Shown here: positions 6,728-57,229 of the stretch, piece after piece | Numbering within the stretch: position 1 is the first letter of the stretch | Layout of the letters: each line of letters opens with the position of its first letter | Source: Bacteroidota bacterium | Lineage (GTDB): Bacteria > Bacteroidota > Bacteroidia > Bacteroidales > F082 | Assembly: GCA_018830105.1 (NCBI GenBank) | Contig: JAHJTC010000014.1 | Span: 107,716 to 171,715, forward strand | Length of the DNA: 64,000 bases | Direction: 5' to 3' | The notes under the pieces: model-generated | What the model saw: only the letters and a program-made list of their open reading frames with translations | What the model was told of the DNA's origin: nothing | The model's database searches: none | Program-made: the position numbers and the translations under genes

Positions 6728-6759
6728 CAAAAAAGGCCTGCCGCGAACGACAGACCTTT
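6728..6759 (-). terminator. intrinsic terminator of the trp attenuator
   Basis: Minus strand reads AAAGGUCUGUCG-UUCG-CGGCAGGCCUUUUUUU. This is a 9-bp stem (three G-U pairs) with a UUCG tetraloop and a U7 tract. It lies 33 nt after the leader-peptide stop and about 55 nt before the trpE ATG. Confidence 0.75.
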
Positions 6760-7035: not shown

Positions 7036-8049
7036 TTAAGTCTGATCCTTTTCATTGATGATTTCCTGTAATGCTTTTGCCCAGTAATCTTCATCGTTCA
7101 AACTTGCAACAAGCTGTAACCTCTGTCCGCCATGCTGCCTGAAAAGTGCATTGTATTCAACACCAATTTCAATGCTGGTTTCCAAACAGTCAGTAACGAA
7201 AGCAGGCGCAACCACCAGCAATTCTTTAACCCCCTTTCTAGCGAGTTCAACGATCTGTTCATCGGCGAAAGGCCTGAGCCATTTTTTTGTTAGGCGCGAC
7301 TGAAAGGCAATGCTGGATTTAGTTTCAGGAATATTACATGCGTTTTGGAGCAAACGTGTTGTAGCAAAACAAGTGGCGCGATAACAATATTTTCCATGTG
7401 CAGGAAATTCAAGATGGCAGTTGCATTTTTCTATTGTCGTATGCGGATGGATGCGACTGATATGCGATTCGGGCAAGCCGTGATAGGAAAATAGCACGTG
7501 ATCAAACAATTCCGGTTTATAAGCTTGAATTTTTTGCTGAAAAGCACCAATAAATGCTGGATGATTATAAAACTGTCCAATGATTTTCAAACTTGGAATT
7601 ACATCCCAGTTTTTAATAACACGCAAACAGTCCTCGCTAACGGTACCTGTTGTAGATTCAGCATATTGTGGGTACATGGGCACGATGATTATTTCGTCCG
7701 GTTGCTGCAACCGCACTTGTTCCAGTACCTTTTTTATTGAAGGATTTCCATAGCGCATAGCAATTAAAATACGGGTTTCGGCCCTGCTTTTAGCTTGCAT
7801 TTTCTTTGCCAGATTAGCAGTGATATAGCGCAGTGGTGAGCCGTGTTGTGTCCACAATTGCTCATAAAGCTTTGCTGATTTAGGAGCACGAAAAGGTGCG
7901 ATAATCAAGTTTACCAGCATCCAACGTGGTATGGCAGGAATATCTATTACTCTTCGATCTCCAAGAAATTCACGCAAATAAGTCCTTACATCTTTCGTTT
8001 TCGGAGAGTCAGGTGTGCCTACATTAATGAGGATAATTGCACGCTGCAT
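7036..8049 (-). CDS. hemH: ferrochelatase
   Basis: 337 aa. MQRAIILINVGTPDSP start, FSYHGLPE and other typical ferrochelatase segments. Confidence 0.93.
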   Translation of the reverse strand: MQRAIILINVGTPDSPKTKDVRTYLREFLGDRRVIDIPAIPRWMLVNLIIAPFRAPKSAKLYEQLWTQHGSPLRYITANLAKKMQAKSRAETRILIAMRYGNPSIKKVLEQVRLQQPDEIIIVPMYPQYAESTTGTVSEDCLRVIKNWDVIPSLKIIGQFYNHPAFIGAFQQKIQAYKPELFDHVLFSYHGLPESHISRIHPHTTIEKCNCHLEFPAHGKYCYRATCFATTRLLQNACNIPETKSSIAFQSRLTKKWLRPFADEQIVELARKGVKELLVVAPAFVTDCLETSIEIGVEYNALFRQHGGQRLQLVASLNDEDYWAKALQEIINEKDQT

Positions 8050-8083
8050 ATTTCATTCTTTTTAATTAGTAGAAGAGAAACTC

Positions 8084-9463
8084 TTATTTTGACAGGATTT
8101 CAGCCAAATGATAGGCCTGTTTGATGCGGTCGGCCATGCCAATACCATCCCGGATATTGCCGGCCAGAAAGACACCCGGATGATTTTCTTCAATGGCTGA
8201 AATAGCCGCCAGACGTGCCTCTGAGCTGCTATCGTATTGAGGAATGGCTTGCTGATAACGGAAAAGTTCAAAAAGATCAGGCGATAAGGTTTCATCATGA
8301 AAAAGCTCACGAAGCGCTTTCAGGGCAATGGCTTTTAATTCCTCATCAGTTTTATCGTAGAGGTCGGGTTTCTTAATTCCACCCATAAATACCGACATCA
8401 GCGCTCCGCCTTCAGGCGCCCTGCCGGGAAAAATGGAAGCAGGAAACAGAACGCCCAGGATGTCTCTGTTTTCCTTCTCAGGAATCAAGCCGCCAAATGC
8501 ATTGAGTTTAGTGCCCTTCCAGTGATTGAACCCAACAGCAATCTGAATAACTTTGGCATAACGCAGGTTTACGATATCAGTGAAAAGCTGAGGCTGTATG
8601 AAGTCGAACAAATTTTTGAGATAACTACCTCCACTGCTTGTTACCACGCGCTCTGCTTCGAAGAATTTGTAACGATCCCCTTGTTTTATTTTGAGACTGA
8701 ATCCGTTGCTTGTTTTAGAAATGTGCCGCACTTCGCTTCCTGTATAGAGTGCCTCCTGATCCAATTTTGAGGTAATAGATTCAATGAGGGATCCCAGCCC
8801 TCCTTTTGCCGAAAAAACGGCTTTATTAGCTTTCTTCTCAAGTGCTGTTTTTGGAAGCTTACTTTTTTTGATGGCACCTTTTATAAAACTACCATAGCCC
8901 TGTTCCAGCTGATATAACTTTGGAAGTGCATATTTTGTGATGAGTTGATTGGGATCACCGGCATAGATTCCACTGATAAAAGGATCAACGGCATAATCCA
9001 GAAAGCTTTTTCCCATGCGCCTTACAACAAGTTCAGCCAATGTTTCCTTGGGGTTTCTGCCTTTTTTTCTGAAGGGCTCTCCTAAAAGCCTGAGCTTGTC
9101 TTTAAAACTAAATAGGGGCGTTGTTACACCTGCCCAAAATCCTGCGGGAAGAGCAACCCATTCACCCTTTTTTAAAATCCAGCGATTGGCAGCCGCCGGA
9201 TTTGCAATTTCTGTCGGACATCCAATGTCCTCGAACAACTCAACAGTTTCTGTGGTTGACAACACACCTGTGTTTGGACCTTCTTCATATTGAAAACCGG
9301 CTTTTCTGATTGTGTTGATTACGCCGCCCAGTCGATCGTCTTTTTCAAAAAGCAGAAAGGGAATACCTTTCTGTTGGAGCCTGAAAGCCAGACTTAAACC
9401 TGTTAGTCCACCACCAATTATTGCGACGCTGCCCGGCTGAAAATTGCTTGTTTGCACTGTCAT
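8084..9463 (-). CDS. hemY: FAD-dependent protoporphyrinogen oxidase (HemY type)
   Basis: 459 aa. N-terminal dinucleotide fold VAIIGGGLTGLSLAF, a C-terminal GNIRDGIGMADRI-like segment, positioned between hemN and hemH. Confidence 0.85.
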   Translation of the reverse strand: MTVQTSNFQPGSVAIIGGGLTGLSLAFRLQQKGIPFLLFEKDDRLGGVINTIRKAGFQYEEGPNTGVLSTTETVELFEDIGCPTEIANPAAANRWILKKGEWVALPAGFWAGVTTPLFSFKDKLRLLGEPFRKKGRNPKETLAELVVRRMGKSFLDYAVDPFISGIYAGDPNQLITKYALPKLYQLEQGYGSFIKGAIKKSKLPKTALEKKANKAVFSAKGGLGSLIESITSKLDQEALYTGSEVRHISKTSNGFSLKIKQGDRYKFFEAERVVTSSGGSYLKNLFDFIQPQLFTDIVNLRYAKVIQIAVGFNHWKGTKLNAFGGLIPEKENRDILGVLFPASIFPGRAPEGGALMSVFMGGIKKPDLYDKTDEELKAIALKALRELFHDETLSPDLFELFRYQQAIPQYDSSSEARLAAISAIEENHPGVFLAGNIRDGIGMADRIKQAYHLAEILSK

Positions 9464-9472
9464 AGGTTTACT

Positions 9473-10846
9473 TTAAATAGTTTTTGAGTAAAGACGATCA
9501 GGATTTACCTGCAAAGGATCTAAAGAAGCCGCGATATTTCGAATAAATAATTGGCCTGCATCTGTAATCTCAAGTCTATTAGCATTCATTTTTAATAAGT
9601 TATCTGCTTCAAATTCAGCCAAAGCATTTTTATCGAGATGAATGCTGTTTTTGAGTGTATCTAAGGATATGTTTCTGCGCATGGCTAAGCTTTCCAAATC
9701 CAGTACCTTATTACACATTAGGTCAGTTATGGCTTCTCTCACAATCATTTCCTGCTTGCTAAGTTCATATCCTTTGACGGTAGCGGCGTTTCCTTGCGAA
9801 ATTCTTTCAATATAGTCATCCACAGATTTGGTGTTCTGCAAATAGGCTTGCTCGAGTTGGCTGATAGCCGAAACGCCTACTGCGTATACCTGTCCGGTGG
9901 TTGCACGCGTGCAGTATCCCTGAAAATTTCTGTGTAATTTTTTTGAATCCAGCGCCCTGAAGAGCTCATCATTGGGCAGCACAAAATGATCCATTCCAAT
10001 TGCTTTATAACCGGCCTCAGCCAATATCATAGCAGCTTTGTTGTACATTGCAACTTTTAGATTGCTATCAGAAAGCCCTCTTTTTTCGAGGATTTCCTGG
10101 TTTTTGAACACGGAAGGAAGATGCGCATAAGAAAATGTTACCAAACGATCAGGTTTGAGCTTTGCTGCTGCTTCGATGGTTTCTGCAAAAGAATCTAAAG
10201 TTTGTGCAGGAAGGCCATAAATAAAATCGAAGTTGATGGCATTATTGGGCTGTCCGTTTTTGATAATAGCCATAATATCAGCAATTGGCATGGCCGAAGG
10301 ATCCCGGTTTACAAGTCGCAGGACGTCTTTGTTAAAATCTTGAATACCAAGGCTGAAGCGATTAAATCCGGCCTGCTTCAAATCCAGCAGGTATTGTTCA
10401 TCCAGATAGGCCGGATTTGTTTCTATGGCAACTTCAGCATCATCGGTCAGTTCGAATGCATCAAATATCATTTGGTTGAGCGCTTGTAAATGCTGGGCTT
10501 CGATAGCGTTTGGAGTGCCTCCTCCATAGTGTATCTGCGACACTTTACGGTTTTTGTCGAGTAGGTTGATCAGCCGGCTAAGCTCAGTTTTCAACGCTGC
10601 CAGATAACTTTTCACTTGATTTGCTTTTCCCATCGGACAAGTGTTGCAACCACAGTAAAAGCAGAGTTTTTTACAGAAAGGAATATGCAGGTAAAACGAA
10701 ATATTCTGAGGCTTAAAGCTATTTGATTTTCTTACAGCTTCCTCATAATTGCTGCTGTTAACTTCTTCAGTGAAATGATTTGCAGGCGGATAGCTTGTGT
10801 ATCGGGGAGCTGCTTTATTGTATTTTTTGATCAGATCAGTATTCAT
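9473..10846 (-). CDS. hemN: oxygen-independent coproporphyrinogen III oxidase (radical SAM)
   Basis: 457 aa. YTSYPPA and HIPFCKKLCFYCGCN carry the full CX3CX2CXC signature that separates true HemN from HemW-like proteins. GGGTP also present. Confidence 0.9.
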   Translation of the reverse strand: MNTDLIKKYNKAAPRYTSYPPANHFTEEVNSSNYEEAVRKSNSFKPQNISFYLHIPFCKKLCFYCGCNTCPMGKANQVKSYLAALKTELSRLINLLDKNRKVSQIHYGGGTPNAIEAQHLQALNQMIFDAFELTDDAEVAIETNPAYLDEQYLLDLKQAGFNRFSLGIQDFNKDVLRLVNRDPSAMPIADIMAIIKNGQPNNAINFDFIYGLPAQTLDSFAETIEAAAKLKPDRLVTFSYAHLPSVFKNQEILEKRGLSDSNLKVAMYNKAAMILAEAGYKAIGMDHFVLPNDELFRALDSKKLHRNFQGYCTRATTGQVYAVGVSAISQLEQAYLQNTKSVDDYIERISQGNAATVKGYELSKQEMIVREAITDLMCNKVLDLESLAMRRNISLDTLKNSIHLDKNALAEFEADNLLKMNANRLEITDAGQLFIRNIAASLDPLQVNPDRLYSKTI

Positions 10847-12044
10847 GGTGTTTGTAAACTTTTTTGAGTGAAAAAGTGAGTATTATCATGGCCAGGATGC
10901 TGAACATGATTTCAATGAGGAATAAATTGGTATAACCCAGCACATCTGCAACTTTTCCGCTAAGAATAGCCATGATAAGACCGCTTAAGTGTGTGATTAC
11001 AATTTGTAGGGTGAAATCTGTTCCTTCTCGCCCACTACGCACAAGATCCATCGAGCTGGTGTAAATGGCAACAGTTGACATACCATAGGATGACCATAGT
11101 AAAAATATTCCCAAGTAAATTAAATGAATGCCAGGGGTTTGCATGCTGATAAAGTAAAAATAGACTCCGGCAAGCAAACTGAGTGTGAGGAAGCTGTATA
11201 AGGCAATTTTTTTGCCTGCTTTTTTGATGAACCAGCCGGCTCCCATGGCAGAAACTGCTGCTATGGCTGTGCCAAAGATTCCGGCCATAAATCCAATATC
11301 TTTGGCGGTATAACCTAAATCTACCAGCCAGGGTTTCAGCATGGCTAAAATCCCTATGATTCCTGAATAATAGAAGAATAGCAGTAAAATCCACCAAGGG
11401 ATGCCCGGTACTTTGAAAAATGATATCAAATCACCCAAACTAACTTTTAGCTTCTCCTTTTGCGCTTTGGGCTCGTTGAGTTTTACAAAGCGAAGAGGAA
11501 TTAGCGCGATTAGTACAAAAAGTGCCAGACAAATCAGCAAGTAATACCAGCCAAGATAGTAGTAAACAATTAAAAGCACGCCGCTTCCGAGTAGCGTGCC
11601 TATAAAGCTTCCTGCAGATTGCATGCTGTTGCCAAGACTTCGTTCGTTTTTTTTAAGTAAAAGAATAGCAAAGGCATCAGTAGCGATATCCTGGGTGGCA
11701 GATGCCGTAAAAGCGATCAGCATCAAGGCGACAATCAGCGTGAAATCAGTTTGTAAACTGAAAAAGCCAATATGTAAAATAATCAGGGCGTAAAAAAACT
11801 CCGAAAGATAAATCCAGCGCTTATACTGACGCATAGTTGATGCGTTATTGTCAACCAGAGGCGCCCATAAAAATTTCAGTATCCAGGGGAGCTTTACCAA
11901 TTGCAACAATCCAATCGACTCCAAAGAATAGTTTTCCTGGCGCATTATTACAGGCACCACGGTTGAAAAAAAACTCATGGGCACCGATTGTGCGATATAT
12001 AAGCTGAATAAGACTGGAAATTTAGGCCAGTTGGCTTGCTTCAT
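10836..12044 (-). CDS. MFS permease of the AmpG/PAT family
   Basis: 402 aa with about 12 predicted hydrophobic segments. The motifs LPWILKFLWAPLVD and ASATQDIATDAF align to E. coli AmpG (FKFLWSPLMD, CSASQDIVFDAW). Confidence 0.8.
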   Translation of the reverse strand: MKQANWPKFPVLFSLYIAQSVPMSFFSTVVPVIMRQENYSLESIGLLQLVKLPWILKFLWAPLVDNNASTMRQYKRWIYLSEFFYALIILHIGFFSLQTDFTLIVALMLIAFTASATQDIATDAFAILLLKKNERSLGNSMQSAGSFIGTLLGSGVLLIVYYYLGWYYLLICLALFVLIALIPLRFVKLNEPKAQKEKLKVSLGDLISFFKVPGIPWWILLLFFYYSGIIGILAMLKPWLVDLGYTAKDIGFMAGIFGTAIAAVSAMGAGWFIKKAGKKIALYSFLTLSLLAGVYFYFISMQTPGIHLIYLGIFLLWSSYGMSTVAIYTSSMDLVRSGREGTDFTLQIVITHLSGLIMAILSGKVADVLGYTNLFLIEIMFSILAMIILTFSLKKVYKHHEY

Positions 12045-12047
12045 GGA

Positions 12048-14144
12048 TTATATTTTTAAGGACAAATCAATGCCAAATTGAGCTGGCTTGCCCGATTGCA
12101 TATAACGGTTTCCAAGCGCTTCAAAATAGAATGAGGTGTATTCTTCACCAAAGATATTTTCTCCAAACAGCCTGATTTCAAAATTGTTCTTTGTGAAAGC
12201 AATATTTAAATCAATAAGGTTGTAGGCTTGTTGTGAAAAATTGTTTTGCTCGTTCCAGAACAGCTCTCCTGTGCTTTTCCATAGGCCTGTAATCCTGATT
12301 CGATCAATAAATCGCGTGTTGACTTTGATGGTCTTGTTGAGTTGTAAAGCCAGCGTATGTCTTGGCACATAGGGTAAAAAGTTGCCGTTGTAGTTTTTTG
12401 TAGAATCAACAATGTGCGATAGAAAACTGGCGTGGGTATAACCATAGGCTACAAATACTTCAAAATTTAAAGGAAGCGAGCTTTTTACTGACACTTCAAA
12501 TCCTTTGCTCAGGCTATGACCTGCATTTTTTAGCATCGAACCTCGCCCGCTGGGAACGGTTTGATAAATCTGCTGGTTAGTCCAGTCGATATAAAATAGC
12601 GAAAGCTCAGCAAAAGTTCTTTGCTCAAAGAGAGAAGTTTTGATGCCAAGTTCATAATTCCAGCTTTGTTCGGGCAAGAAAGTTAGATCTTCCGGACGCT
12701 CAAAAGTAGAGTTAAAACCTCCTGTCTTAAAACCTTTTGCAGCTAATGCATATACGGAAGTCTGATTGGTGAGGGCATATGAGAGGGCGATTTTTGGTGA
12801 AACCTCATTGTAGTTTAACAGGGGATAAGTGGTGTCAGCAATACTGTTATTCTGACCATTTCTTAACATATCGTATGTGTAGGATAGCTTGCTTTGCTCG
12901 AAGTCGATACGAATACCGGCAGTAAGTGTTAAGCCGTTGATCAGAAAGTTATCCAGCATCGATTGGTGGAATAAGGCAAAGCCCGAATTGATTTCGTCGT
13001 AGCTTTTAAACATCCGAAGCTTTTGAGCATAAACATCTACATCAACCGATTTATCAAGCAATTGCGTGAATCCAAAAACACCTGCAACCCATTGGTAATT
13101 TCCTGCATAGGCTGATTTAAATACAAACTCCTGCGAAAGCATGTGCTGCTGCTGTTTCTGCGTGACAAGGTAAAGAGAGTCAGCAGTAAAATCCTGGTCA
13201 ATTTCCTGAAAATCAACCAGTGCCTGATAACTTGTCGTAGATATCATTTCTATACGAGGGCCTTTGTAATTTAATATCAATCCATTAGATAATAAATTTC
13301 TTTCATAACCTGATGGCTGATTGTAATTGATAAGCTCAGCTTTTTCCAATGAATCATTATAAACCGCATAGGGATAACCACCTTGTTTGCTGTATTCGTA
13401 ACTGAGAATGTTAGACAACTGCCAGCGCTCGTTGATTTGCCAGCTCAAGCGGTTGCGCATTCCCAAAGCATCCATATAATCAACCTGTTCGTTATTATAG
13501 GTGTTGGTAAAGAAGCCATCGGTATGTCTGTAATTGAAAGACAGGCTATAGCCTAAGTCTTTACTGATTTTATTGTAGTGACTTAATCCGGCTGCATATT
13601 CTCCATAAGTGGCTGCAGAAAGCCTAAAACTGGTTTCCGGTTTTTCGCCGGGAGCACGCGTAATAATGTTGATAATGCCTCCCATGCTATTGCGTCCGTA
13701 AAGGCTTCCCTGAGGGCCACGCAACACTTCAACACGTTCAATATCAAAGAAGTCGAAATCAAAAGCTGATTTTTCAAAATAGGGAATTTGATCCACATAA
13801 AGTCCCACCGAAGGCGAATTGATACGCGATCCGATTCCCCGGATGTAAACCGGTGAAGTGAGCTTTGATCCGTAATCAGGCATAAATAAATTGGGCGTAA
13901 TGGCTGATATATCCTTGATGGACTCGATGCGGTTTTCCTTGAGGGTTCGCGCCGTAAGCACAGTAGCTGCCCCGGTAAGCGATTTTAGTTCAATCCGCTC
14001 TTTTGGTGCACGGATTGTGATTTCGTCCAGAACTATTTCAGGAACACCGGTGCTGTCGTTAAGAATAAAGTGCATTTGCTGGGCATGGATAGGGTGTCCA
14101 AAAGCCCAAGAAAATAAGATGATAAATATTATTAATCGGTACAT
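12048..14144 (-). CDS. TonB-dependent receptor (plug + 22-strand barrel type)
   Basis: Signal peptide, plug motifs (ITIRA.., RVEVLRGPQGSLYGRNSMGGIINIITR), and a C-terminal barrel ending in an aromatic-rich strand. I moved the start to the ATG (MYRLIIF); the tracked start is a TTG. Confidence 0.9.
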   Translation of the reverse strand: MYRLIIFIILFSWAFGHPIHAQQMHFILNDSTGVPEIVLDEITIRAPKERIELKSLTGAATVLTARTLKENRIESIKDISAITPNLFMPDYGSKLTSPVYIRGIGSRINSPSVGLYVDQIPYFEKSAFDFDFFDIERVEVLRGPQGSLYGRNSMGGIINIITRAPGEKPETSFRLSAATYGEYAAGLSHYNKISKDLGYSLSFNYRHTDGFFTNTYNNEQVDYMDALGMRNRLSWQINERWQLSNILSYEYSKQGGYPYAVYNDSLEKAELINYNQPSGYERNLLSNGLILNYKGPRIEMISTTSYQALVDFQEIDQDFTADSLYLVTQKQQQHMLSQEFVFKSAYAGNYQWVAGVFGFTQLLDKSVDVDVYAQKLRMFKSYDEINSGFALFHQSMLDNFLINGLTLTAGIRIDFEQSKLSYTYDMLRNGQNNSIADTTYPLLNYNEVSPKIALSYALTNQTSVYALAAKGFKTGGFNSTFERPEDLTFLPEQSWNYELGIKTSLFEQRTFAELSLFYIDWTNQQIYQTVPSGRGSMLKNAGHSLSKGFEVSVKSSLPLNFEVFVAYGYTHASFLSHIVDSTKNYNGNFLPYVPRHTLALQLNKTIKVNTRFIDRIRITGLWKSTGELFWNEQNNFSQQAYNLIDLNIAFTKNNFEIRLFGENIFGEEYTSFYFEALGNRYMQSGKPAQFGIDLSLKI

Positions 14145-14383
14145 AATCAGCAAACTATAAATATAATAAGTTAAATATCTTTCGCAATTGGTCGGATGGA
14201 AAGCTAATGTCGTGTCTGTGCTACTGTGTCGGTTAAGTCGTAGTAATTTTTTCTCAAATCAAAAAAGAAATTCTGCGCATAGCCCATGTTAAGTAAAGGA
14301 TTTATTTTGCAGAGTTAGGAAAAAAGAACAAGACTTGAGCCGGCTAAAGCTAGTGTTGACATGACACTAGGGAATAAAACTTA

Positions 14384-14737
14384 TTATATTGCCGGAGGTG
14401 GCCTGCTGAAAAGAAAATGCGAGATAAACTGTTTGGGAATTCGAGTGGAGAGCTCCGGATTAAAAAGCGCTAACAGATAACGAATCGTAGTGTCAGAACT
14501 AAATATTTCTTGTTTTTGTGCAATTTGATTGCCAATCTCATCAAGGTAATAAAAACAATCAGCTAAATTATCAGCTGATTTTTCTGATTGCAGAATGATT
14601 TGTTTTGTCAGTAGTTCTGCTTCGGCCATTGCCTCATGCTCCAATGCCTTGAGCGAAAATGAGGCAAAGCTTACCAGATACACTACACCAAGCAGTATGT
14701 AAGGCAAGTTAGTTGAAAGTAATCCGAAGAAAAACAT
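14384..14737 (-). CDS. hypothetical small membrane-anchored protein
   Basis: 117-aa ORF with one N-terminal hydrophobic helix. It is the only ORF in an otherwise gene-poor stretch of about 860 bp. No recognisable motif. Confidence 0.3.
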   Translation of the reverse strand: MFFFGLLSTNLPYILLGVVYLVSFASFSLKALEHEAMAEAELLTKQIILQSEKSADNLADCFYYLDEIGNQIAQKQEIFSSDTTIRYLLALFNPELSTRIPKQFISHFLFSRPPPAI

Positions 14738-15009: not shown

Positions 15010-15017
15010 TAAATTTG
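15010..15017 (+). promoter_or_regulatory. candidate -7 promoter box (TAAATTTG)
   Basis: Matches TAnnTTTG, 23 nt upstream of the ATG at 15041. It overlaps the tracked GTG start, which argues for the ATG start. Confidence 0.35.
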
Positions 15018-15040
15018 TGATTGCCAAATTAAAACCTGAA

Positions 15041-15550
15041 ATGAAAAAAATTATTCCTGGATTTTTATTGCTGTTTCTGCTGATTTTTATTACTTCCTGC
15101 GAACAAAAAGAAGAACTATCTCCGGATGAAATCCTTGTCTGGAATAAGCAAATTGCGGAAGCTTATGTAAAGACCATGGCAGCCTCCATTGGTGAAGCTG
15201 CTACTGAAATAAGTGATAGTGTTGAATTGGTGAGTTTTATTCGCAGAGTAATTGATCCGATAAGCTTTTATCCGGATAGCTCGGGTTATTTTTATGTGTA
15301 TAACTTCAACTGTGTAAACATAGCTCATGCGCGCCAAAAGGACTTAGAAGGACAAAACTTACACGATTATACCGATTCGCGTGGAAAATACGTGATTCGT
15401 GAACTTTCAGCTGTTGCCCAAAGTGGTGGAGGCTATGTAGTTTTTTATTGGATAAAGCCCGGCGAAACCGGTGAAAAACGCAAGCTTGGCTATGTTAAGC
15501 CTATTCCCAATACCGAATACTTTATTGGAACCGGTGTTTATCTTGAATAG
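15041..15550 (+). CDS. stand-alone Cache (sCache_2-like) domain lipoprotein
   Basis: MKKIIPGFLLLFLLIFITSC lipobox. GYFYVYNFN..NIAHA, the DSRGKYVIREL region, and GGGYVVFYWIKPGETGEKRKLGYVKPIPNTEYFIGTGVY are the classic Cache_2 signature. No transmitter domain follows. Confidence 0.7.
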   Translation: MKKIIPGFLLLFLLIFITSCEQKEELSPDEILVWNKQIAEAYVKTMAASIGEAATEISDSVELVSFIRRVIDPISFYPDSSGYFYVYNFNCVNIAHARQKDLEGQNLHDYTDSRGKYVIRELSAVAQSGGGYVVFYWIKPGETGEKRKLGYVKPIPNTEYFIGTGVYLE

Positions 15551-15640: not shown

Positions 15641-16225
15641 ATGCGTATTGTATTGAGCCTCATCTTGATGTTTTCATCGTTTTTTGTTTTCGGTCAATCG
15701 GGGATAAAATATGAAAAAGAAGAATCAGTATGCAGGGAAGCCTTTCCTGATGAGGCCTTGTTGCAGCTGCAGCCCCTGTTGGACCAGTCAAAAAGAATTC
15801 GTTTTTACAAAGAAACGGATCAGGATGGGATTAATTATGAAGTTAAATTGAAATTTGAGGGCAACTTTTACAGTATTGAGTACGACTCCTCTAACAACTT
15901 AAAGGATATTGAAAGGTTAATGAGCTGGAAAAAATACAATATGCCGGCCAAGTTAGTGATGCAACAATTTATGGATTCTTTGTTTATCAAGTACAAAGTG
16001 AAGCGATTTCAAATACAGGATGTGCCAAATTCAGCGCTCGAATCGATACACTATTTGCCATTGGAGAAGGATTTTTTGATTGGCAGGAATTACGAACTGG
16101 AGCTGGATGCTATTTTAAAAGGCCAGCACAAGCCTTTAAGTTTTGAATTATTGTTTGATAATTCAGGGGTTTTATTGCAAAGACGAATCATTTCCAGTGA
16201 CTTGCAGGATAATTTAATTTACTAG
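15641..16225 (+). CDS. secreted hypothetical protein, possibly PepSY-like repeats
   Basis: 194 aa with a signal peptide. Two YE(V/L)xL...FD/YD segments resemble PepSY-like (DUF2874-type) repeats. The function call is weak. Confidence 0.5.
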   Translation: MRIVLSLILMFSSFFVFGQSGIKYEKEESVCREAFPDEALLQLQPLLDQSKRIRFYKETDQDGINYEVKLKFEGNFYSIEYDSSNNLKDIERLMSWKKYNMPAKLVMQQFMDSLFIKYKVKRFQIQDVPNSALESIHYLPLEKDFLIGRNYELELDAILKGQHKPLSFELLFDNSGVLLQRRIISSDLQDNLIY

Positions 16226-16226
16226 C

Positions 16227-16928
16227 ATGAGAGGGATAGCATTCGGTTTTTTAATGACATTGTTGTTGCTTTTTGTGGCTTCAAGCGCTTGGTCGCAACG
16301 TATTCCTTTTTATGCCGAACCGGCGCTCTCGGTTGGTAAACAATTGAAAGGCAGGTTTTCAGTCAATGCCAAATTCGTTTTTCGGCAGCAGTTTGCCAGT
16401 ATAAATGAACAACAACTCGACTGGTTTTCACAAAGTGATGTGGTTGAGGTACAGCTTTTTCTGAATTATAAAATCCTGGGTAGCAAACGGCTTACTTTCG
16501 GGTATCTATATGGTCTTGATGATCCGTTTCTTACTGATCCGGCATGGGAACACCGGCTGATGCAACAATTTACATTTCAAAGCGGAAATCGGTTTAAGTG
16601 GGTAAACAGGTTGCGATTGGAACAACGTTTTAGTGCAAACCAATTCAGAAATCGCATAAGATATCGGTTTACTTTTGATAGCCCGCTATCAGGCAGCAAA
16701 CTTGACCCGAAGGAGTGGTATTTTGTTGCAGGCGACGAATGGCTTTATAATTTCACCGGAAAGCCCGGCGAAGACCATCTTGAAAATCGCATTCAGGCAG
16801 GACTCGGGTATTTGTTCGATAACGGACATAAAGTCCAATTCGAAATACAGTATCGTTGGCTAAGAATGCTTTCTTCCCGGGAAGCTTCTGCCTGGCATTT
16901 GCTGCTTACTTACAACCTGAATCTGTAG
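16227..16928 (+). CDS. putative outer-membrane beta-barrel protein (DUF2490-like)
   Basis: 233 aa with a signal peptide, alternating amphipathic strands, RLRLEQRF and IRYRFTF motifs, and a C-terminal aromatic strand. Starts 2 nt after the previous gene. Confidence 0.5.
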   Translation: MRGIAFGFLMTLLLLFVASSAWSQRIPFYAEPALSVGKQLKGRFSVNAKFVFRQQFASINEQQLDWFSQSDVVEVQLFLNYKILGSKRLTFGYLYGLDDPFLTDPAWEHRLMQQFTFQSGNRFKWVNRLRLEQRFSANQFRNRIRYRFTFDSPLSGSKLDPKEWYFVAGDEWLYNFTGKPGEDHLENRIQAGLGYLFDNGHKVQFEIQYRWLRMLSSREASAWHLLLTYNLNL

Positions 16929-50962: not shown

Positions 50963-53900
50963 TTAGTTAAAGATGTATCTGATACCAATCTGACCAGTCC
51001 AACGTGAACCATAGATACCAACATCGCTTACATTGTAAACTTCTTCAACATCAGCAGGACCGCTGTAGCTAAAGGTTGCTTTACCATCTGCATCAGTGCC
51101 TTCATAGTCAACAAGCTGAAGTGCATCGTTTGTGATATAACGACGGATACCCCATTCTGGGTTGAGCAGGTTAGTGAAGTTGAAGATATCCAAAGTCAAC
51201 TGCAGAGTATGACGTTTACCGGCTGCATTGATATAGAAATCCTGAATAAGTTTCAAGTCGATCACGCTTTCGAAAGGAAGACGACTTCCGTTTCTTACTG
51301 CATAGTCGCCACGGTTTTCGCTGAGGTATTTATCACTTTCGATAAAGCTATTCAAATCAGCCCATTGCTGCGCTGCAGTCTTCGTTACATTACCATCATC
51401 ATCAACCAGGTTGATAAGGTTGATTTGACTTTCATTTGCAGGAATCCAGATCAGGTTACCGGCGTTTTCGCCTTCCCCATTCATATTACCACGGTCGTTA
51501 TACACGTATGAATAACGTTGTCCACTTTGTCCGTTGTAAACAAGACTCAAAGTAGTTGCGAAATTATTGGCATACTCTAAGCGATAGGAAAGGAAAGCCA
51601 GCACGCGGCTGCCCAAATCAAAGTCTGAATAGCTACGATCAAGGTGATTCAATCCGCGAACGTTTTCCATGTAACGCCACTGTGAACTGTTTTGTGAAGA
51701 TGTACCATCATTCAATGAAGTAGCACGTCCGAAGGTGTAAGCAAAAGTACCACTAATTCCTTTGCTGATTGGTTTAGTTACCTGAGCAGTAAGGTTATAG
51801 GTGTATCCTTCACTTGTATTTGTTCCGTAAATGATACGGGTATAATTACCCTCAATACGTTCTCCTGGATAATATGGACGTTGGTCAGGGCCATTATTTA
51901 CAGTAGTACCATATGCCGGTTTTTGATTCACGTCATAGTAAAGAACATTATTGATATTTTTGGTGTAGATTGCTTCAACTGATCCGACCAAACCCCACCA
52001 AGGTAGTTTGTGGTCAAGGCCAAGGCTTGTTCTGAGTACCTGAGGATTTTTAAAGTCTTTGGCAAACAAATCAACCTGTCCGCTTGGGATAGCATCTGCC
52101 TGACCAAAATCTGTAGCAGTGTATTGATTGTCCCATTCAGGTCTGAAATCAACATCACCTCTGTAATAAACACCACCAACAGTTACACCATTATTGGTAT
52201 AGGAACCGCCGGGCCAAACCAATGGCAATCGGCTGGTAAACAGTCCAATACCACCACGAACCTGTGTAGTTTGATCACCATTAACATCCCAGTTGAAACC
52301 AAGACGTGGGTTAACACTTACATAAGCTTTTGGCATTTCACCAATTTTGGCGTCTTTCAGGTCATAGCCATAAGATTCGATCAAAGGTATGGTGTTGTTG
52401 TTGAAATCATCCCATACAGCCTGGTTGCTTCCTGCATTTGGAGTATCGAGGTATTGAGGAACATCGAAACGTAAACCTGCTGTCAGTTTGAAGTTGTCAG
52501 TCAATTGCCAATCATCCTGAATATAAAAACCGTACTGCATTGTTCTGAAGTCTGCAGCAGCAGCGGAACCATCACCAACAATATTATCAACTAGTGAATA
52601 GCCTCTTTCGTACTGGAAGGCAGGAGCACCAGTCATAAAGTCATTAAGTGAATTGAAACGGTATTCGCCAAATGCTTTACGCATAAAGAGGTTGTAAGTT
52701 TTTCCGTATTCAATATTAATGCCGAATGTTACAGTATGCGCACCTTTGTAAATGGTGAAATTGTCATTGATTGTTAAAATGTCCTGATCAAGCTGGTTTC
52801 CTGTTGAATAAGGCTCTGATCCTGCATTAATCGTTCCTGCACCATCATAAATGATCAAATTCGGGAATTTGTCACCCATCTGGTCGCGCTGGTCGCGTAC
52901 AGTCGTGTAACCAATTATCAGGTTATTGGACATGGTATTCCAGTTACTTTTCAACTCAAGAGCAGAAGAGTTTGTTGTACTAGGAAAGAAAACACCTCTG
53001 TTATAGTAATTGATTGATCTGCTGGAAGAGCGACTGGGGCCAATAGAAGTACTTTTGGTGTACGAATGGCGCAGTGTCAATTTATGATTCTGGCTGATAT
53101 TCAGGTCGAAACGAGCAAGAAATTTATCACTGTTCAACTCAGCTGTATTATTAAGAAAACCACCTGGATCATATCCGTACGTACCAAGTTTAGCTGAGAA
53201 GGCTTCCAACTCTGCTTGGGTTGAGTTTCCTGTGTAGTCAGCAAAACTGAATGGCTGCGGTGTTTCATCACGTTGGAATTCAGCATTCAGGAAGAAGAAG
53301 AGTTTGTTTTTGATGATGGGGCCGCCAATACGCATACCATAAGTTTTGGCAGTGAATTCATCCAGTTTGGTTCTGTCTTCTACACCTTCACCAGGAGTTT
53401 TTCCGGCCAGGCTTTCATTGCGATAAAGCAGATATGCTGAGCCTTCAAATTCGTTTGTGCCACGACGTGTTACAGCATTGATGCTGGCTCCGGCAAATCC
53501 ACCCTGACGAACATCGTAAGGAGCAATAACGATCTGAAACTGGTCGATAGCATCCAAACTGATTGGTGTGCCACCAGTTTGACCGCCGTTTGTTCCTGAT
53601 GCAGCCAAGCCAAATACGTCGTTGTTCACAGCACCGTCAAACGAAATGGCATTGTAGCGGTTGTTGATACCGGCTACTGTAATTGCTCCTGTACCACCAC
53701 TAACGCTGGCTTGAGGTGTTAAACGCACAAAATCGCCAATTGAACGGCTGAGTGTTGGCAACTTGCCAATTTCGGCATTACTTACATAAGTTTCTGCACC
53801 TGTACGGTTACCATCGAAGATGTCGTTCAGGGAAGCTACTACTTCCACATCGGCAAGTGTGATGGCTGATTCGCTGAGCTTTACATCAAGTTTTAAAGTC

Positions 53901-54208
53901 TGACCAAGTGTGAGGAAAATATCATCCTTCACATAAGGTTGAAAACCAACAAATGAAACAGTTACTTTGTAAGGACCACCAACGTTCATGTTCGGGATCC
54001 TATAATAACCGCTTGCATCCGTTACGGTTCCAAACTGAGTTCCTGTAGGCATATCAACTACCACAACGGTAGCTCCTGGAAGCGTTTCTCCACTGGCATC
54101 ATGCACTCTTCCATTCATACCGGAAGTTGTTGTTCCTTGTGCATAAATGTTCTGCCAACCGAAAATCATCATTGCTGCTAAAAAGCTGATGAGTAGGTTT
54201 TTTTTCAT
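50963..54208 (-). CDS. Oar-like TonB-dependent receptor with CarboxypepD_reg N-terminal domain
   Basis: 1081 aa. Signal peptide, GRVHDASGETLPGATVVVVD..GYYRIPN (carboxypeptidase regulatory-like fold), plug and long barrel, ending in RYIFN. No SusD-like partner. Confidence 0.9.
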   Translation of the reverse strand: MKKNLLISFLAAMMIFGWQNIYAQGTTTSGMNGRVHDASGETLPGATVVVVDMPTGTQFGTVTDASGYYRIPNMNVGGPYKVTVSFVGFQPYVKDDIFLTLGQTLKLDVKLSESAITLADVEVVASLNDIFDGNRTGAETYVSNAEIGKLPTLSRSIGDFVRLTPQASVSGGTGAITVAGINNRYNAISFDGAVNNDVFGLAASGTNGGQTGGTPISLDAIDQFQIVIAPYDVRQGGFAGASINAVTRRGTNEFEGSAYLLYRNESLAGKTPGEGVEDRTKLDEFTAKTYGMRIGGPIIKNKLFFFLNAEFQRDETPQPFSFADYTGNSTQAELEAFSAKLGTYGYDPGGFLNNTAELNSDKFLARFDLNISQNHKLTLRHSYTKSTSIGPSRSSSRSINYYNRGVFFPSTTNSSALELKSNWNTMSNNLIIGYTTVRDQRDQMGDKFPNLIIYDGAGTINAGSEPYSTGNQLDQDILTINDNFTIYKGAHTVTFGINIEYGKTYNLFMRKAFGEYRFNSLNDFMTGAPAFQYERGYSLVDNIVGDGSAAAADFRTMQYGFYIQDDWQLTDNFKLTAGLRFDVPQYLDTPNAGSNQAVWDDFNNNTIPLIESYGYDLKDAKIGEMPKAYVSVNPRLGFNWDVNGDQTTQVRGGIGLFTSRLPLVWPGGSYTNNGVTVGGVYYRGDVDFRPEWDNQYTATDFGQADAIPSGQVDLFAKDFKNPQVLRTSLGLDHKLPWWGLVGSVEAIYTKNINNVLYYDVNQKPAYGTTVNNGPDQRPYYPGERIEGNYTRIIYGTNTSEGYTYNLTAQVTKPISKGISGTFAYTFGRATSLNDGTSSQNSSQWRYMENVRGLNHLDRSYSDFDLGSRVLAFLSYRLEYANNFATTLSLVYNGQSGQRYSYVYNDRGNMNGEGENAGNLIWIPANESQINLINLVDDDGNVTKTAAQQWADLNSFIESDKYLSENRGDYAVRNGSRLPFESVIDLKLIQDFYINAAGKRHTLQLTLDIFNFTNLLNPEWGIRRYITNDALQLVDYEGTDADGKATFSYSGPADVEEVYNVSDVGIYGSRWTGQIGIRYIFN

Positions 54209-54402: not shown

Positions 54403-56967
54403 TCAAAATCTATACCTTATTCCCATGTCAAATGTGCGGCCAAAAGACCAAAATCCTCTAAAATCTTCTAAATTATGCTGAGTTCCATCCTCACCTTTAA
54501 TGATGTAGGTGTCGTCCAACAGATTATTGCAGTTTACATACAATGTTACTAATTGTTTGTTCAGGGGGTAATTAAATGAGAGGTGCATATTGATCAAAGT
54601 GCTTGATGGTATGCGATAGCTCTGATTTCTATCGGTTTCATCCTGACGACCGGAGGGGTCAAAATCTGCATAATGCTGATCGGAATAAGTGGCGTTAATC
54701 GCTAAATTGAAAAAATCCAGCAGAATAAAATCTGCAAAAACGGCTGTTTGAAACTGGGGTTGTCCGCCAACTTTCAATCCGTTGGCAAACACGCTTACTG
54801 TGTCCACTGCAACATCAAGGTGATTAAATAAGGTAGCCTGAACATCATTTTTCCATTTCCAATCGCCCGAAGTAATGAAAAAACCTGCTTTAAAATTTCT
54901 TGATATTTTGGTGTTGGCTTCCAATTCAATTCCGCGGTGTAAAGCATTTAACCCTTTTACCATGGCGCGACTTTGCTGGTCGTTCTCCAACTGCACGTAT
55001 TCGTTCGACAAAAATGAAACATCTTCCCAAAGGGTATAATATCCATTTATATTTACCGAAAATTGCTCATTGCGGAAGCCGTATCCAGTTTCAATACTGC
55101 TGACCTTTTCGTTTTTCGGGTCTTTGACAGGTGTATTGCTGAAGTTTCCAAAAACGAACTTATAATAAGGTGCCTTGCTAAAATGGCCCGCATTGAAGTA
55201 AAAATGTTGTTTTTCGTCTAAATTGAAATTGAGCCCTCCTTTTATGTCGAACCCACTGATGCCAACCCACTCACTCCACTTATTATTTGGGTAATTGTAA
55301 CTGTCATGTCTTTTGTATTGGTTCTCAGAAAGGGTTCCGCCAGCAAAAAAAGTAAATGCTCCGGTTTTATATTCCCATTGGGCAAACAAGCTACTTTGGT
55401 GCAAAAGGGCTCCATTATTTATTCTGATCAAATCTCCGGGCATTTTAACTTGTTCACGGCCAGCTACTCCTGCTGCCGACCAACTGAAATCGTCTAAATA
55501 AAAATTTCCTCCCAACAGATCATCAACACGCTGCGTAAGACTGCTTTGAAAATAGCGGTAATGGAGACCGGCAGTGATTTTTTGATTTTGTGTTAAATTG
55601 ATTTCGGCCGAGCTCATTACACCTCCCCACATATGACTGGCCAAAAAGTTGGTTTGCACCAATTTGGAGTAACCAGTTACGGTTTCGCCATTGGCTAGGG
55701 TATAGGAGTCAGTGTTTTGTGCATTGTAGTTGTAGATCGACTCCCAATCAATTTGTCCTGAAGGATTCCGGAAATCAAATACGCCAGGCCCATAGTTGAA
55801 GCTGTCGCTCCATTTTCCGCCTCCCCATCCCGGCGAGAGATAAGCGGCAGATGAAAGCAAAACTTTGTCGCTGATATCCCAATAGTGGTTTATGGAGAAA
55901 TGGGGTTTGTGATAAAAGTTCTCTGAAGCATTTTTAATTTGCCCGTTATAACTGCCCCAGTCTTTGTTAAACTTAGTGCCATGAAGGCTAATATCTTGTT
56001 CGCTGAGCTTCAAATTTCGTTGACCATGCCGCTCCGGGCCTCCCAACAAACTAAGTACGATCCTCTGATTCTTGCCAATTTCGCGCGCAGCACTTATAAA
56101 ATAGGCCCAGGCATCAACATAGGTAGCATCAATATAGCCCTCGCCTTTTAGTCGCGATCCCAGCAGTGAAATACTCCAGCCGTTTTCCATTCTGCCTGTT
56201 TGATAGGCGAAAGTGAGCTTTTGGTTGCCATAACTTGTTGTAGAAACACTTAAAAAACCAGCCTTTTTAGGATATGCCAGATTGGTTAAAATATTTACGG
56301 TGCCACCCACTGAATTTAGTGCAACTTTTGAAGCACCTATACCTCTTTGGACCTGAATACCTGCGGTTGCTTCGGTGAGTCCAAGCCAGTTATTCCAATA
56401 GATTAAACCGTTTTCGGCGCCGTTGATCGGCACTCCATTTAATAGAACGGCAATATTTTCTTGTTTAAAACCACGAATAGATAAACTGGCATCGCCCGAA
56501 CCGCCTCCATCCCGGCTGGCAAAAACACCGGGAATACGATCCATGATGGCAGGAAATGGCTTGTCGCCCAGTTGTGTACTGATTTTCTCAGCATCTATCT
56601 TGTTAAAAGATAATGGATTATACCTTTCCTGAGCGATATCAGCAAGTATGCTGACCTCCTGCAAATTGATATTTTGGGGTTTTAACTGGATCTGGATCGG
56701 AAAATCAGTGTCTTGATTTATGGCTATTTCAGCTTGCTCAAATCCAAGATGCGTGATAAGAAGTGTTGCTGGTAATTTTGCGTTTTCAAGCTTGAAATAG
56801 CCTTGAAAATCTGTACTAACTCCCACCGCTTGACTACTGATGTTGACGTTTACAAAAGGCAAAGACTCGCCGGTGTTTTGGTGCGTAATAAATCCATCAA
56901 TTTGATGCTGTGCCGTGGCGGTTCCCAACCCGAAAAGAACAAATAGTAAAAAACAAACTGTTTTCAT
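54403..56967 (-). CDS. TonB-dependent receptor with CarboxypepD_reg-like N-terminal domain, FMN-riboswitch controlled
   Basis: MKTVCFLLFVLFGLGTATA signal peptide, GFITHQNTGESLPFVNVNI, plug (GGSGDASLSIRGF), and a barrel ending in IRYRF. The start is moved to 56967 because the tracked 5' extension covers the riboswitch terminator. Confidence 0.9.
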   Translation of the reverse strand: MKTVCFLLFVLFGLGTATAQHQIDGFITHQNTGESLPFVNVNISSQAVGVSTDFQGYFKLENAKLPATLLITHLGFEQAEIAINQDTDFPIQIQLKPQNINLQEVSILADIAQERYNPLSFNKIDAEKISTQLGDKPFPAIMDRIPGVFASRDGGGSGDASLSIRGFKQENIAVLLNGVPINGAENGLIYWNNWLGLTEATAGIQVQRGIGASKVALNSVGGTVNILTNLAYPKKAGFLSVSTTSYGNQKLTFAYQTGRMENGWSISLLGSRLKGEGYIDATYVDAWAYFISAAREIGKNQRIVLSLLGGPERHGQRNLKLSEQDISLHGTKFNKDWGSYNGQIKNASENFYHKPHFSINHYWDISDKVLLSSAAYLSPGWGGGKWSDSFNYGPGVFDFRNPSGQIDWESIYNYNAQNTDSYTLANGETVTGYSKLVQTNFLASHMWGGVMSSAEINLTQNQKITAGLHYRYFQSSLTQRVDDLLGGNFYLDDFSWSAAGVAGREQVKMPGDLIRINNGALLHQSSLFAQWEYKTGAFTFFAGGTLSENQYKRHDSYNYPNNKWSEWVGISGFDIKGGLNFNLDEKQHFYFNAGHFSKAPYYKFVFGNFSNTPVKDPKNEKVSSIETGYGFRNEQFSVNINGYYTLWEDVSFLSNEYVQLENDQQSRAMVKGLNALHRGIELEANTKISRNFKAGFFITSGDWKWKNDVQATLFNHLDVAVDTVSVFANGLKVGGQPQFQTAVFADFILLDFFNLAINATYSDQHYADFDPSGRQDETDRNQSYRIPSSTLINMHLSFNYPLNKQLVTLYVNCNNLLDDTYIIKGEDGTQHNLEDFRGFWSFGRTFDMGIRYRF

Positions 56968-56982
56968 AATGATGATTTGTTT

Positions 56983-57014
56983 AAAATAAAAAACCCCGCA
57001 ATAAACTACGGGGC
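56983..57014 (-). terminator. expression-platform terminator of the FMN riboswitch
   Basis: Minus strand reads UGCCCCG-UAGUUUAUUG-CGGGGU followed by UUUUUAUUUU. It ends about 15 nt before the receptor ATG. Confidence 0.7.
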
Positions 57015-57101
57015 ATATTACTTTAAACAAAATACATTACAATAATACCAATGATATCCATAGCAAACTACTATAGACTCAAGCATTATAATGCATGATG
57101 T

Positions 57102-57220
57102 TATTCTCCTCCCATCCAGACTATAACTGTCGGTAACGTAATTGAAACGTTTCAATCCTGCATTTGCAGGACTCGCGGACTTTACCGCCGATCGGGAATT
57201 TCACCCTGCCCCGAAGAATA
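57102..57220 (-). promoter_or_regulatory. FMN riboswitch (RFN element) aptamer
   Basis: Minus strand reads UAUUCUUCGGGGCAGGGUGAAAUUCCCGAUCGGCGGUAAAGUCCGCGAGUCCUGCAAAUGCAGGAUUGAAACGUUUCAAUUACGUUACCGACAGUUAUAGUCUGGAUGGGAGGAGAAUA. It is near-identical to the conserved RFN cores of the B. subtilis ribD leader (CUUCGGGGCAGGGUGAAAUUCCCGACCGGCGGUA ... GCCGACAGU..AAGUCUGGAUGGGAGAAG), with closing helix UAUUCUUC/GGAGAAUA. Confidence 0.92.
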
Positions 57221-57229
57221 ATTACGCGG

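Follow-up and report, generated by a model that had tools for sequence, protein, structure and literature searches.

A 64,000-nucleotide stretch from a Bacteroidota bacterium (GCA_018830105.1, contig JAHJTC010000014.1, positions 107,716 to 171,715 of the forward strand; here called the window) carries six co-oriented minus-strand genes at 7036-14737 in its list of open reading frames (ORFs): a leader gene, a TonB-dependent receptor, a permease of the major facilitator superfamily (MFS), and the heme enzymes HemN, HemY and HemH. On balance, we lean toward the reading that this operon imports coproporphyrinogen III or a close tetrapyrrole and converts it to heme, under the control of an arrest-peptide switch; in this reading we infer what is transported, which way the regulation works and what signal is sensed. 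The receptor would carry an exogenous late tetrapyrrole, most likely coproporphyrinogen III, over the outer membrane, and the MFS permease would move it across the inner membrane. HemN would then convert coproporphyrinogen III to protoporphyrinogen IX, HemY would take this to protoporphyrin IX, and HemH would insert iron to give heme. Coproporphyrinogen III is regarded as the most likely substrate because all three downstream enzymes are retained. It is a tetra-anionic molecule of ~660 Da, too big for porins.

Gene content and conserved linkage of the operon

The genes are listed below in the order of their transcription (aa, amino acids).

14384-14737, minus strand: leader ORF, 117 aa, putative arrest peptide; no family match, conserved homologues
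12048-14144, minus strand: TonB-dependent outer-membrane receptor, 698 aa; the ATG at 14144 is the start in public gene calls
10836-12044, minus strand: MFS permease, 402 aa, from the ORF list
9473-10846, minus strand: HemN, coproporphyrinogen III oxidase of the oxygen-independent type, 457 aa (TIGR00538)
8084-9463, minus strand: HemY-type FAD protoporphyrinogen oxidase, 459 aa (TIGR00562; Amino_oxidase domain)
7036-8049, minus strand: HemH ferrochelatase of the protoporphyrin type, 337 aa (PF00762; TIGR00109)

The mechanical ORF list begins the receptor at a TTG codon (12048-14153, 701 aa). A first-pass annotation of this DNA had described the five larger genes and their junctions, and the ORF list agrees with it on both: receptor and permease are separated by 3 nucleotides (nt), permease and HemN overlap by 11 nt, and gaps of 9 and 34 nt separate HemN from HemY and HemY from HemH. 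As these junctions are tight, they suggest one transcript and translational coupling. The leader was overlooked in that annotation and belongs to the operon as its sixth gene.

The three enzymes score well within their families. HemN reaches 453.6 bits with TIGR00538 (cut-off 325), compared with 173 bits for HutW (cut-off 400) and 157 bits for HemW (cut-off 205); HemZ is far lower too. The CX3CX2CXC motif reported in the first-pass annotation is present as CKKLCFYCGC at residue 58, fourth cysteine included, and the N-terminus has RYTSYPP at residue 15, part of the full-length extension that HemW lacks. HemY scores 274.1 bits with TIGR00562 (cut-off 97.85; PF01593 E-value 1.6e-45), and HemH scores 223.8 bits with TIGR00109 (cut-off 124.6) and 317.8 bits with PF00762. 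Since all three proteins pass curated equivalog cut-offs, the operon is predicted to encode every one of the three steps downstream of coproporphyrinogen. A coproporphyrin-dependent pathway was considered and rejected: HemH is unlike the Firmicute type, with just 34 bits to the coproporphyrin-ferrochelatase-like model NF009095, and a genuine HemN is present.

These matches bear on whether the operon might instead import heme or a metalloporphyrin (Zn- or Co-porphyrin), with the enzymes acting as a HemW/ChuW-like chaperone or degrader and HemH as a dechelatase. Heme uptake is well known in Bacteroidales, and the HemN family includes the look-alikes HemW and ChuW/HutW. Both are weaker matches here, however: HemN passes its equivalog cut-off, fails those of HutW and HemW, and has the fourth cysteine and the RYTSYPP N-terminus. 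The receptor sequence contains none of the heme-receptor boxes FRAP, NPNL and NPxL, and scores 68 bits with the TonB-hemin model TIGR01785, whose cut-off is 317; its identification as a heme receptor was rejected on these grounds. Moreover, imported heme would require none of the three enzymes. We consider this explanation highly improbable.

The linkage of the genes was followed in other genomes. With one genome taken per species, relatives of the permease turned up in 396 genomes, the closest being in Lentimicrobiaceae/Bacteroidales metagenome-assembled genomes (MAGs) at 80-83% identity. Neighborhoods were counted for the best 80 of the 396 (58-83% permease identity) within 10-kb flanks, and the denominators are the contigs that reach far enough. 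The receptor lies directly upstream of the permease at 66/66 loci; downstream of the permease are HemN (70 of 72 loci), HemY (66 of 66) and HemH (59 of 61). This linkage is far beyond chance. When all flanking ORFs were clustered, the small upstream ORF, our leader, was the sole further conserved neighbor. Because no other flanking gene is conserved, the operon is a self-contained unit that moves between genomic contexts. No genes for peptidoglycan recycling, siderophore synthesis or ferric reductase are found among the conserved neighbors at the 80 loci, where few neighbor clusters are annotated and rare cases are possible. The first-pass annotation had proposed such a survey of the permease clade as a check on itself; the linkage proves not to be unique to the window, and no pattern of muropeptide genes across the clade is seen among the 80 loci. 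Full-text literature searches found no paper describing a receptor-MFS-hemN operon.

Some loci depart from the common form. A Paludibacter-like subgroup (L011, L031, L033, L046, L071, L074, L095) has the order HemN, divergent ferrochelatase, HemY; its HemN is at 41% identity, and its ferrochelatase of 312 aa has 24-27% identity to the window HemH and still matches PF00762. In one MAG (L015, 779-1510; L016, 74-661), a CcsA-like cytochrome c assembly gene with the motif WGRYWGWDPKETW lies just upstream of leader and receptor, a neighbor that, going by its sequence, would link the operon to cytochrome c maturation in that MAG. Some operon-bearing MAGs (L020, L043, L044, L057) are labelled Thiohalospira, Chitinophaga or Synergistaceae, and their proteins are 61-63% identical to those of the Bacteroidales clade; the labels are probably binning or labelling errors.

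The proposed substrate

A cassette in gut Bacteroides provides insight into what the transporters carry. A protein search over annotated plasmids found it on a conjugative plasmid of Bacteroides xylanisolvens (L099, NZ_CP045613.1, 30478-36830), where genes for the receptor, the MFS permease, HemN, a protoporphyrinogen oxidase of 449 aa and a small DUF4491 protein are flanked by transfer genes and a relaxase. Its receptor, permease, HemN and HemY are 39, 49, 47 and 45% identical, respectively, to the window proteins over their full length. The exact sequence of the plasmid permease is named for Bacteroides ovatus and "Bacteroidales", with at least 1000 contigs and 8092 indexed assembly blocks containing it. 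All five places listed for it (L105-L109) have the same five-gene cassette, which adjoins relaxase, integrase or excisionase-type genes at four of the five. The chromosomes of Prevotella and Xylanibacter brevis have receptor-MFS-HemN-HemY, with a permease 80% identical to that of the plasmid. Neither the gut Bacteroides cassette nor the Prevotella and Xylanibacter versions have HemH or the leader at the loci examined.

The hosts of the cassette are informative in this respect. hemH is missing from Bacteroides spp., Prevotella intermedia and Tannerella forsythia, and HemA, HemL, HemB and HemC are missing from most of the Bacteroidota analyzed (PMC13096392). Bacteroides require heme or protoporphyrin, can insert the metal into protoporphyrin although they have no homologue of ferrochelatase, and receive porphyrins by cross-feeding from E. 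coli, which secretes them (PMC4696147). Because such hosts are reported to be without the early heme enzymes, HemN and HemY in HemH-less cassette hosts have no internal substrate, and that substrate must be imported. The transporters inherited together with HemN and HemY are the evident route. As for precursors of this kind, a passage of PMC8699415 credits to Caldwell 1965 the use of coproporphyrinogen and uroporphyrinogen by a rumen Bacteroidales. The first-pass annotation had proposed that the window operon brings an environmental tetrapyrrole across both membranes and finishes it to heme. This proposal gains support from the conserved linkage and from the mobile cassette in HemH-less Bacteroides, and its substrate is still one that we infer.

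The operon could also serve an organism that makes heme de novo and re-imports porphyrinogens leaked by itself or its neighbors, or else protoporphyrin(ogen) or uroporphyrinogen, as an economy device and not to meet an auxotrophy. Searches with the E. coli HemA/L/B/C/D/E sequences (tblastn, 1e-5) matched nothing in the 64-kb window, nor in the 8-10 kb around the 80-plus loci searched, and the rest of the window contains no other heme genes. Early heme genes, if present, sit away from the window and the flanks of the retrieved loci. A literature search on heme biosynthesis in Lentimicrobium, Paludibacter and Prolixibacter gave nothing usable. Recapture is largely compatible with the import of a heme precursor, as the importers would still carry a tetrapyrrole; were the substrate protoporphyrin, however, the mobile cassette would not need HemN and HemY to be inherited with it. 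As an explanation in its own right, recapture seems to us unlikely.

The two transport proteins resemble known families at a distance. The permease has MFS_1 and Acatn domains and belongs to the AmpG/PAT/RhtX-FptX superfamily, and the motifs KFLWAPLVD and SATQDIATDAF, from which the first-pass annotation had called it AmpG-like, are both present. That description is correct at the level of the superfamily and fails at the level of the family. The top curated family is RhtX/FptX (TIGR02718, 159.9 bits, cut-off 356), AmpG (TIGR00901) follows at 140.1 bits with a cut-off of 350, neither cut-off is reached, and RhtX/FptX outranks AmpG in all 15 clade members tested. Solved relatives of the permease are limited to AmpG and an acetyl-CoA transporter, the best match being AmpG 8zgz at 79 bits. 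With AmpG the permease shares the MFS fold, the KFLWAPLVD-type loop and this detectable homology, but the E. coli AmpG chain (8zgz, 494 residues) is longer by ~90 residues, and muropeptide-recycling genes are absent from the conserved neighbors of the 80 loci, few of whose neighbor clusters are annotated. The muropeptide reading of the permease was rejected on score and gene context.

The receptor is of the plug-and-barrel type, as had been recognized at first pass (Plug PF07715, 64 bits; TonB_dep_Rec_b-barrel PF00593, 115 bits). Its barrel is of the 22-strand type, and the N-terminus has the signal peptide MYRLIIFIILFSWAFGHPIHAQQ. The top NCBIfam model is a TonB-siderophore subfamily, at 175 bits and under its cut-off of 223.5, and the nearest solved relative is the yersiniabactin/pesticin receptor FyuA (4epa, 121 bits).

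Such scores could favor an iron-supply function, in which the pair takes up a ferric siderophore or some other chelate of iron and is co-expressed with the enzymes so that the ferrochelatase gets iron during heme synthesis. The top models of both proteins and the solved relative of the receptor point to siderophores, and for the permease the RhtX/FptX assignment is shared by the 15 clade members. The adjacent cognate TonB receptor that characterizes RhtX/FptX permeases is found here as well, 3 nt away in the window and directly upstream at every one of the 66 loci. Distant plasmid relatives, receptor-MFS pairs in cyanobacteria and rhizobia, are annotated as RhtX/FptX pairs. Against this, both proteins fall well under the family cut-offs, and genes for siderophore synthesis or ferric reductase are absent from the conserved neighbors of the 80 loci, as far as these are annotated. 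What accompanies the pair throughout is HemN and HemY and not HemH, which is missing altogether from the cassette of gut Bacteroides and from the Prevotella version; ferrochelatase is reportedly lacking in Bacteroides. Since the cassette hosts have no ferrochelatase to feed and HemN and HemY are the constant partners, the iron-supply explanation is undercut, and we judge it quite unlikely.

The arrangement itself has precedents in FptA/FptX (pyochelin), RhtA/RhtX (rhizobactin 1021) and FyuA/YbtX (yersiniabactin), where a TonB receptor stands beside a single-component MFS importer from the same superfamily, and neither a periplasmic binding protein nor an ATP-binding cassette (ABC) system is involved. 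The operon differs from them in that its proteins score far under the family cut-offs (160 against 356 and 175 against 223.5), in that its pair lies within a heme-enzyme operon and not, as far as its neighbors are annotated, in a siderophore-synthesis cluster, traveling with HemN and HemY even in ferrochelatase-less hosts, and in its proposed ligand, a tetrapyrrole precursor and not a ferric siderophore.

Among the distant plasmid pairs, that of Trichormus variabilis plasmid A (L100, NC_007410.1, 199020-214183) has 25% (receptor) and 33% (MFS) identity, and adjoins a pair of BlaI/M56 regulators and a cluster of heme-copper oxidase genes.

The leader gene and its predicted pairing with the receptor start

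The leader has no Pfam or NCBIfam match. Residues ~1-30 form a hydrophobic anchor (mean hydropathy ~1.7-1.9), the middle is variable with an aromatic patch, CFYYLDE, and the C-terminus reads HFLFSRPPPAI, followed by the stop. At 66 non-redundant places, a homologue of ~106-125 aa immediately precedes the receptor. Common to these homologues are a hydrophobic N-terminal segment (MFxFGLFSTxLPYI...), a central part that is hypervariable and holds an aromatic patch, and a terminal (F/Y)SRPPP. The features at the end of the leader and the start of the receptor are the following.

14393-14410, minus strand: F-S-R-P-P-P codons, a putative ribosome-arrest motif, two codons before the stop
14378-14411, minus strand: predicted 5' helix arms UUUCAGCAG (14403-14411) and AAUAUAAUAAGUU (14378-14390), covering the arrest codons and the leader stop; minimum-free-energy fold
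14146-14172, minus strand: predicted 3' helix arms AACUUAUUAUAUU (14160-14172) and UUUGCUGAU (14146-14154), ending 2 nt before the receptor ATG (14144)

The arginine and the prolines of the motif are kept in 64-66 of the 66 leaders, encoded by varying synonymous codons (six for arginine, all four for proline), and PPP sits 2-6 residues before the stop in 65 of the 66. Because these codons vary synonymously, the alignment argues that selection acts on the leader peptide. The sequence RPPP occurs 57 times in the 379,000 residues of the locus ORFs, where ~1 occurrence is expected, and all 57 are at a leader C-terminus. Two lineages (L023, L062) carry RAPP in place of RPPP.

The RNA at the end of the leader is complementary to that at the start of the receptor. 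In the minimum-free-energy fold of 14130-14410 (z = -2.3), a long-range helix pairs UUUCAGCAG, over the F-S-R codons, with UUUGCUGAU, and AAUAUAAUAAGUU, over the stop, with AACUUAUUAUAUU. The duplex of leader end and receptor start is worth -20.6 kcal/mol, a value equaled by 0.2% of 2000 shuffles. Across 45 non-redundant loci, the end of a leader is predicted to pair more strongly with the receptor start of its own locus than with non-cognate starts (Wilcoxon p = 2e-4); the cognate duplex is in the best 10% at 22 of the 45 loci, and about half of the loci give no clear signal under the start codons chosen.

These features resemble those of a known class. A C-terminal RAPP or RGPP in small membrane or secreted proteins defines a class of ribosome-arrest peptides that includes upstream ORFs (uORFs) of TonB-dependent receptors and the copper-responsive CruR; the survey took the RGPP and RAPP motifs only, and RPPP is unmentioned in it (PMC12992588). 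Like CruR of Bordetella pertussis, the RAPP/RGPP uORFs, SecM and MifM, the leader is a small ORF with a localization signal and R-x-P-P near its stop. As with CruR and the RAPP/RGPP uORFs, the gene that it immediately precedes, and presumably regulates, is that of a TonB receptor, and the putative arrest region of the leader is complementary to the downstream start. The messenger RNA structure that joins arrest site and downstream start in the RAPP-like class is seen here in the predicted duplex and in the 45-locus comparison. In contrast to the CruR/SecM class, the leader has RPPP (RAPP in the two lineages) and an N-terminal anchor and lacks a Cys/His metal site, the genes downstream of it have to do with heme and not with copper or secretion, and the stalling is deduced.

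The leader is probably the switch of the operon, as far as sequence can tell. By default, its 3' end would pair with the start region of the receptor. A ribosome stalled at RPPP would cover the leader 3' end and melt the helix, and the receptor start would be freed. This would switch on the translationally coupled genes, in the logic of SecM, MifM and CruR. We speculate that release depends on heme or a porphyrin and operates through the anchor and the aromatic patch.

Seven leader homologues were traced to their contigs: six head the same operon, one heads a small beta-barrel protein, and none of the seven stands before early heme genes. At the exceptional locus (L087, 10001-11128; Ga0371482_10000021), what comes after an RPPP leader is a protein of 191 aa that weakly matches an outer-membrane beta-barrel. 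The leader family may, to judge from these neighbors, control other parts of outer-membrane uptake too.

Genomic surroundings, opposing points and significance

Downstream of hemH, the next genes are trpEGDCFBA, set apart by a gap and a hairpin.

6732-6759, minus strand: terminator-like hairpin with a 12-bp stem and a T tail, from a consensus scan, between hemH and the start of trpE

In public gene calls trpE starts at ~6671 and encodes 460 aa, and the hairpin falls within the longer mechanical trpE ORF; it could terminate the heme unit or serve as an attenuator for trp. Neither a riboswitch nor any other Rfam family was found at the operon, scanning for sigma-70 promoters yielded fewer matches than in shuffled sequence, and no Bacteroidetes TAnnTTTG box is found upstream of the leader. 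The contig is a 234-kb part of the metagenome assembly ERZ27247117, and the public runs containing the operon sequence are DNA metagenomes of groundwater and sediment. The remainder of the window consists of housekeeping and anaerobe-type genes, with rubrerythrin and a flavodiiron protein among the anaerobe hallmarks.

Divergent from the operon are genes for a stand-alone Cache-domain protein, sensor domain only, of 169-177 aa (15017-15550, plus strand), a family-less 194-aa protein (15641-16225, plus strand) and a DUF2490 protein (16227-16928, plus strand). Elsewhere in the window, a flavin mononucleotide (FMN) riboswitch at 57100-57222 on the minus strand (108.8 bits, gathering score 66.2) lies directly 5' of a TonB-dependent receptor gene with CarboxypepD_reg and Plug domains (54403-57030, minus strand), after which comes a second large outer-membrane barrel gene (50963-54208). 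This receptor and barrel, with the riboswitch, are a candidate riboflavin-regulated outer-membrane uptake system.

Several points weigh against the import of coproporphyrinogen III or a close tetrapyrrole under an arrest-peptide switch. Homology alone would predict a metal chelate, since the nearest characterized relatives, FyuA and RhtX/FptX, import siderophores. Coproporphyrinogen is oxygen-labile. A HemY enzyme, which would normally use O2, is an odd companion for an oxygen-independent HemN in a host with anaerobe hallmarks. The gut cassette is only 39-49% identical to the window proteins, so that carrying its substrate over to the window operon is an extrapolation. Ribosome stalling at RPPP is deduced from sequence only. 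Finally, no RNA run is found among the public runs matched to the operon.

Close functional parallels are HusA/HusB and HmuY/HmuR of Porphyromonas gingivalis, a member of the same order that also obtains the porphyrin ring externally through a TonB-dependent receptor. That Hus takes up coproporphyrinogen III or protoporphyrin IX as a supply for HemN/HemG/HemH has been put forward, purely as a hypothesis (PMC12094164). The operon differs from Hus and Hmu: it encodes no hemophore-like lipoprotein, its receptor is of the siderophore type without heme-receptor boxes, it uses an MFS protein at the inner membrane, and its importer genes are joined to the enzyme genes. The design is a variation on the pair of siderophore receptor and RhtX/FptX permease, and on RAPP-type leaders.

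Bacteroidales dominate guts, rumens, digesters and anoxic sediments; many are heme auxotrophs, and how they acquire the porphyrin ring is understood only in part. Heme receptors are known, but we know of no transporter identified for metal-free heme precursors. The operon gives a concrete candidate for such an importer, in hundreds of environmental species and in a very widespread mobile cassette of gut Bacteroides. That the receptor/permease pair is a dedicated Bacteroidales importer of coproporphyrinogen III, placed in environmental lineages under a new heme- or porphyrin-responsive RPPP arrest peptide, is a tentative proposal and a somewhat doubtful one as it stands. If true, the pair would be the missing transport step behind the reported use of precursors by rumen Bacteroides and behind porphyrin cross-feeding in the gut. 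It would name the porphyrin importer of Bacteroidales and carry the receptor/MFS design of the RhtX/FptX type over from siderophores to tetrapyrroles. It would also be relevant to the shaping of communities by porphyrin cross-feeding, and a heme-linked member would join the newly recognized RAPP-like arrest-peptide switches.

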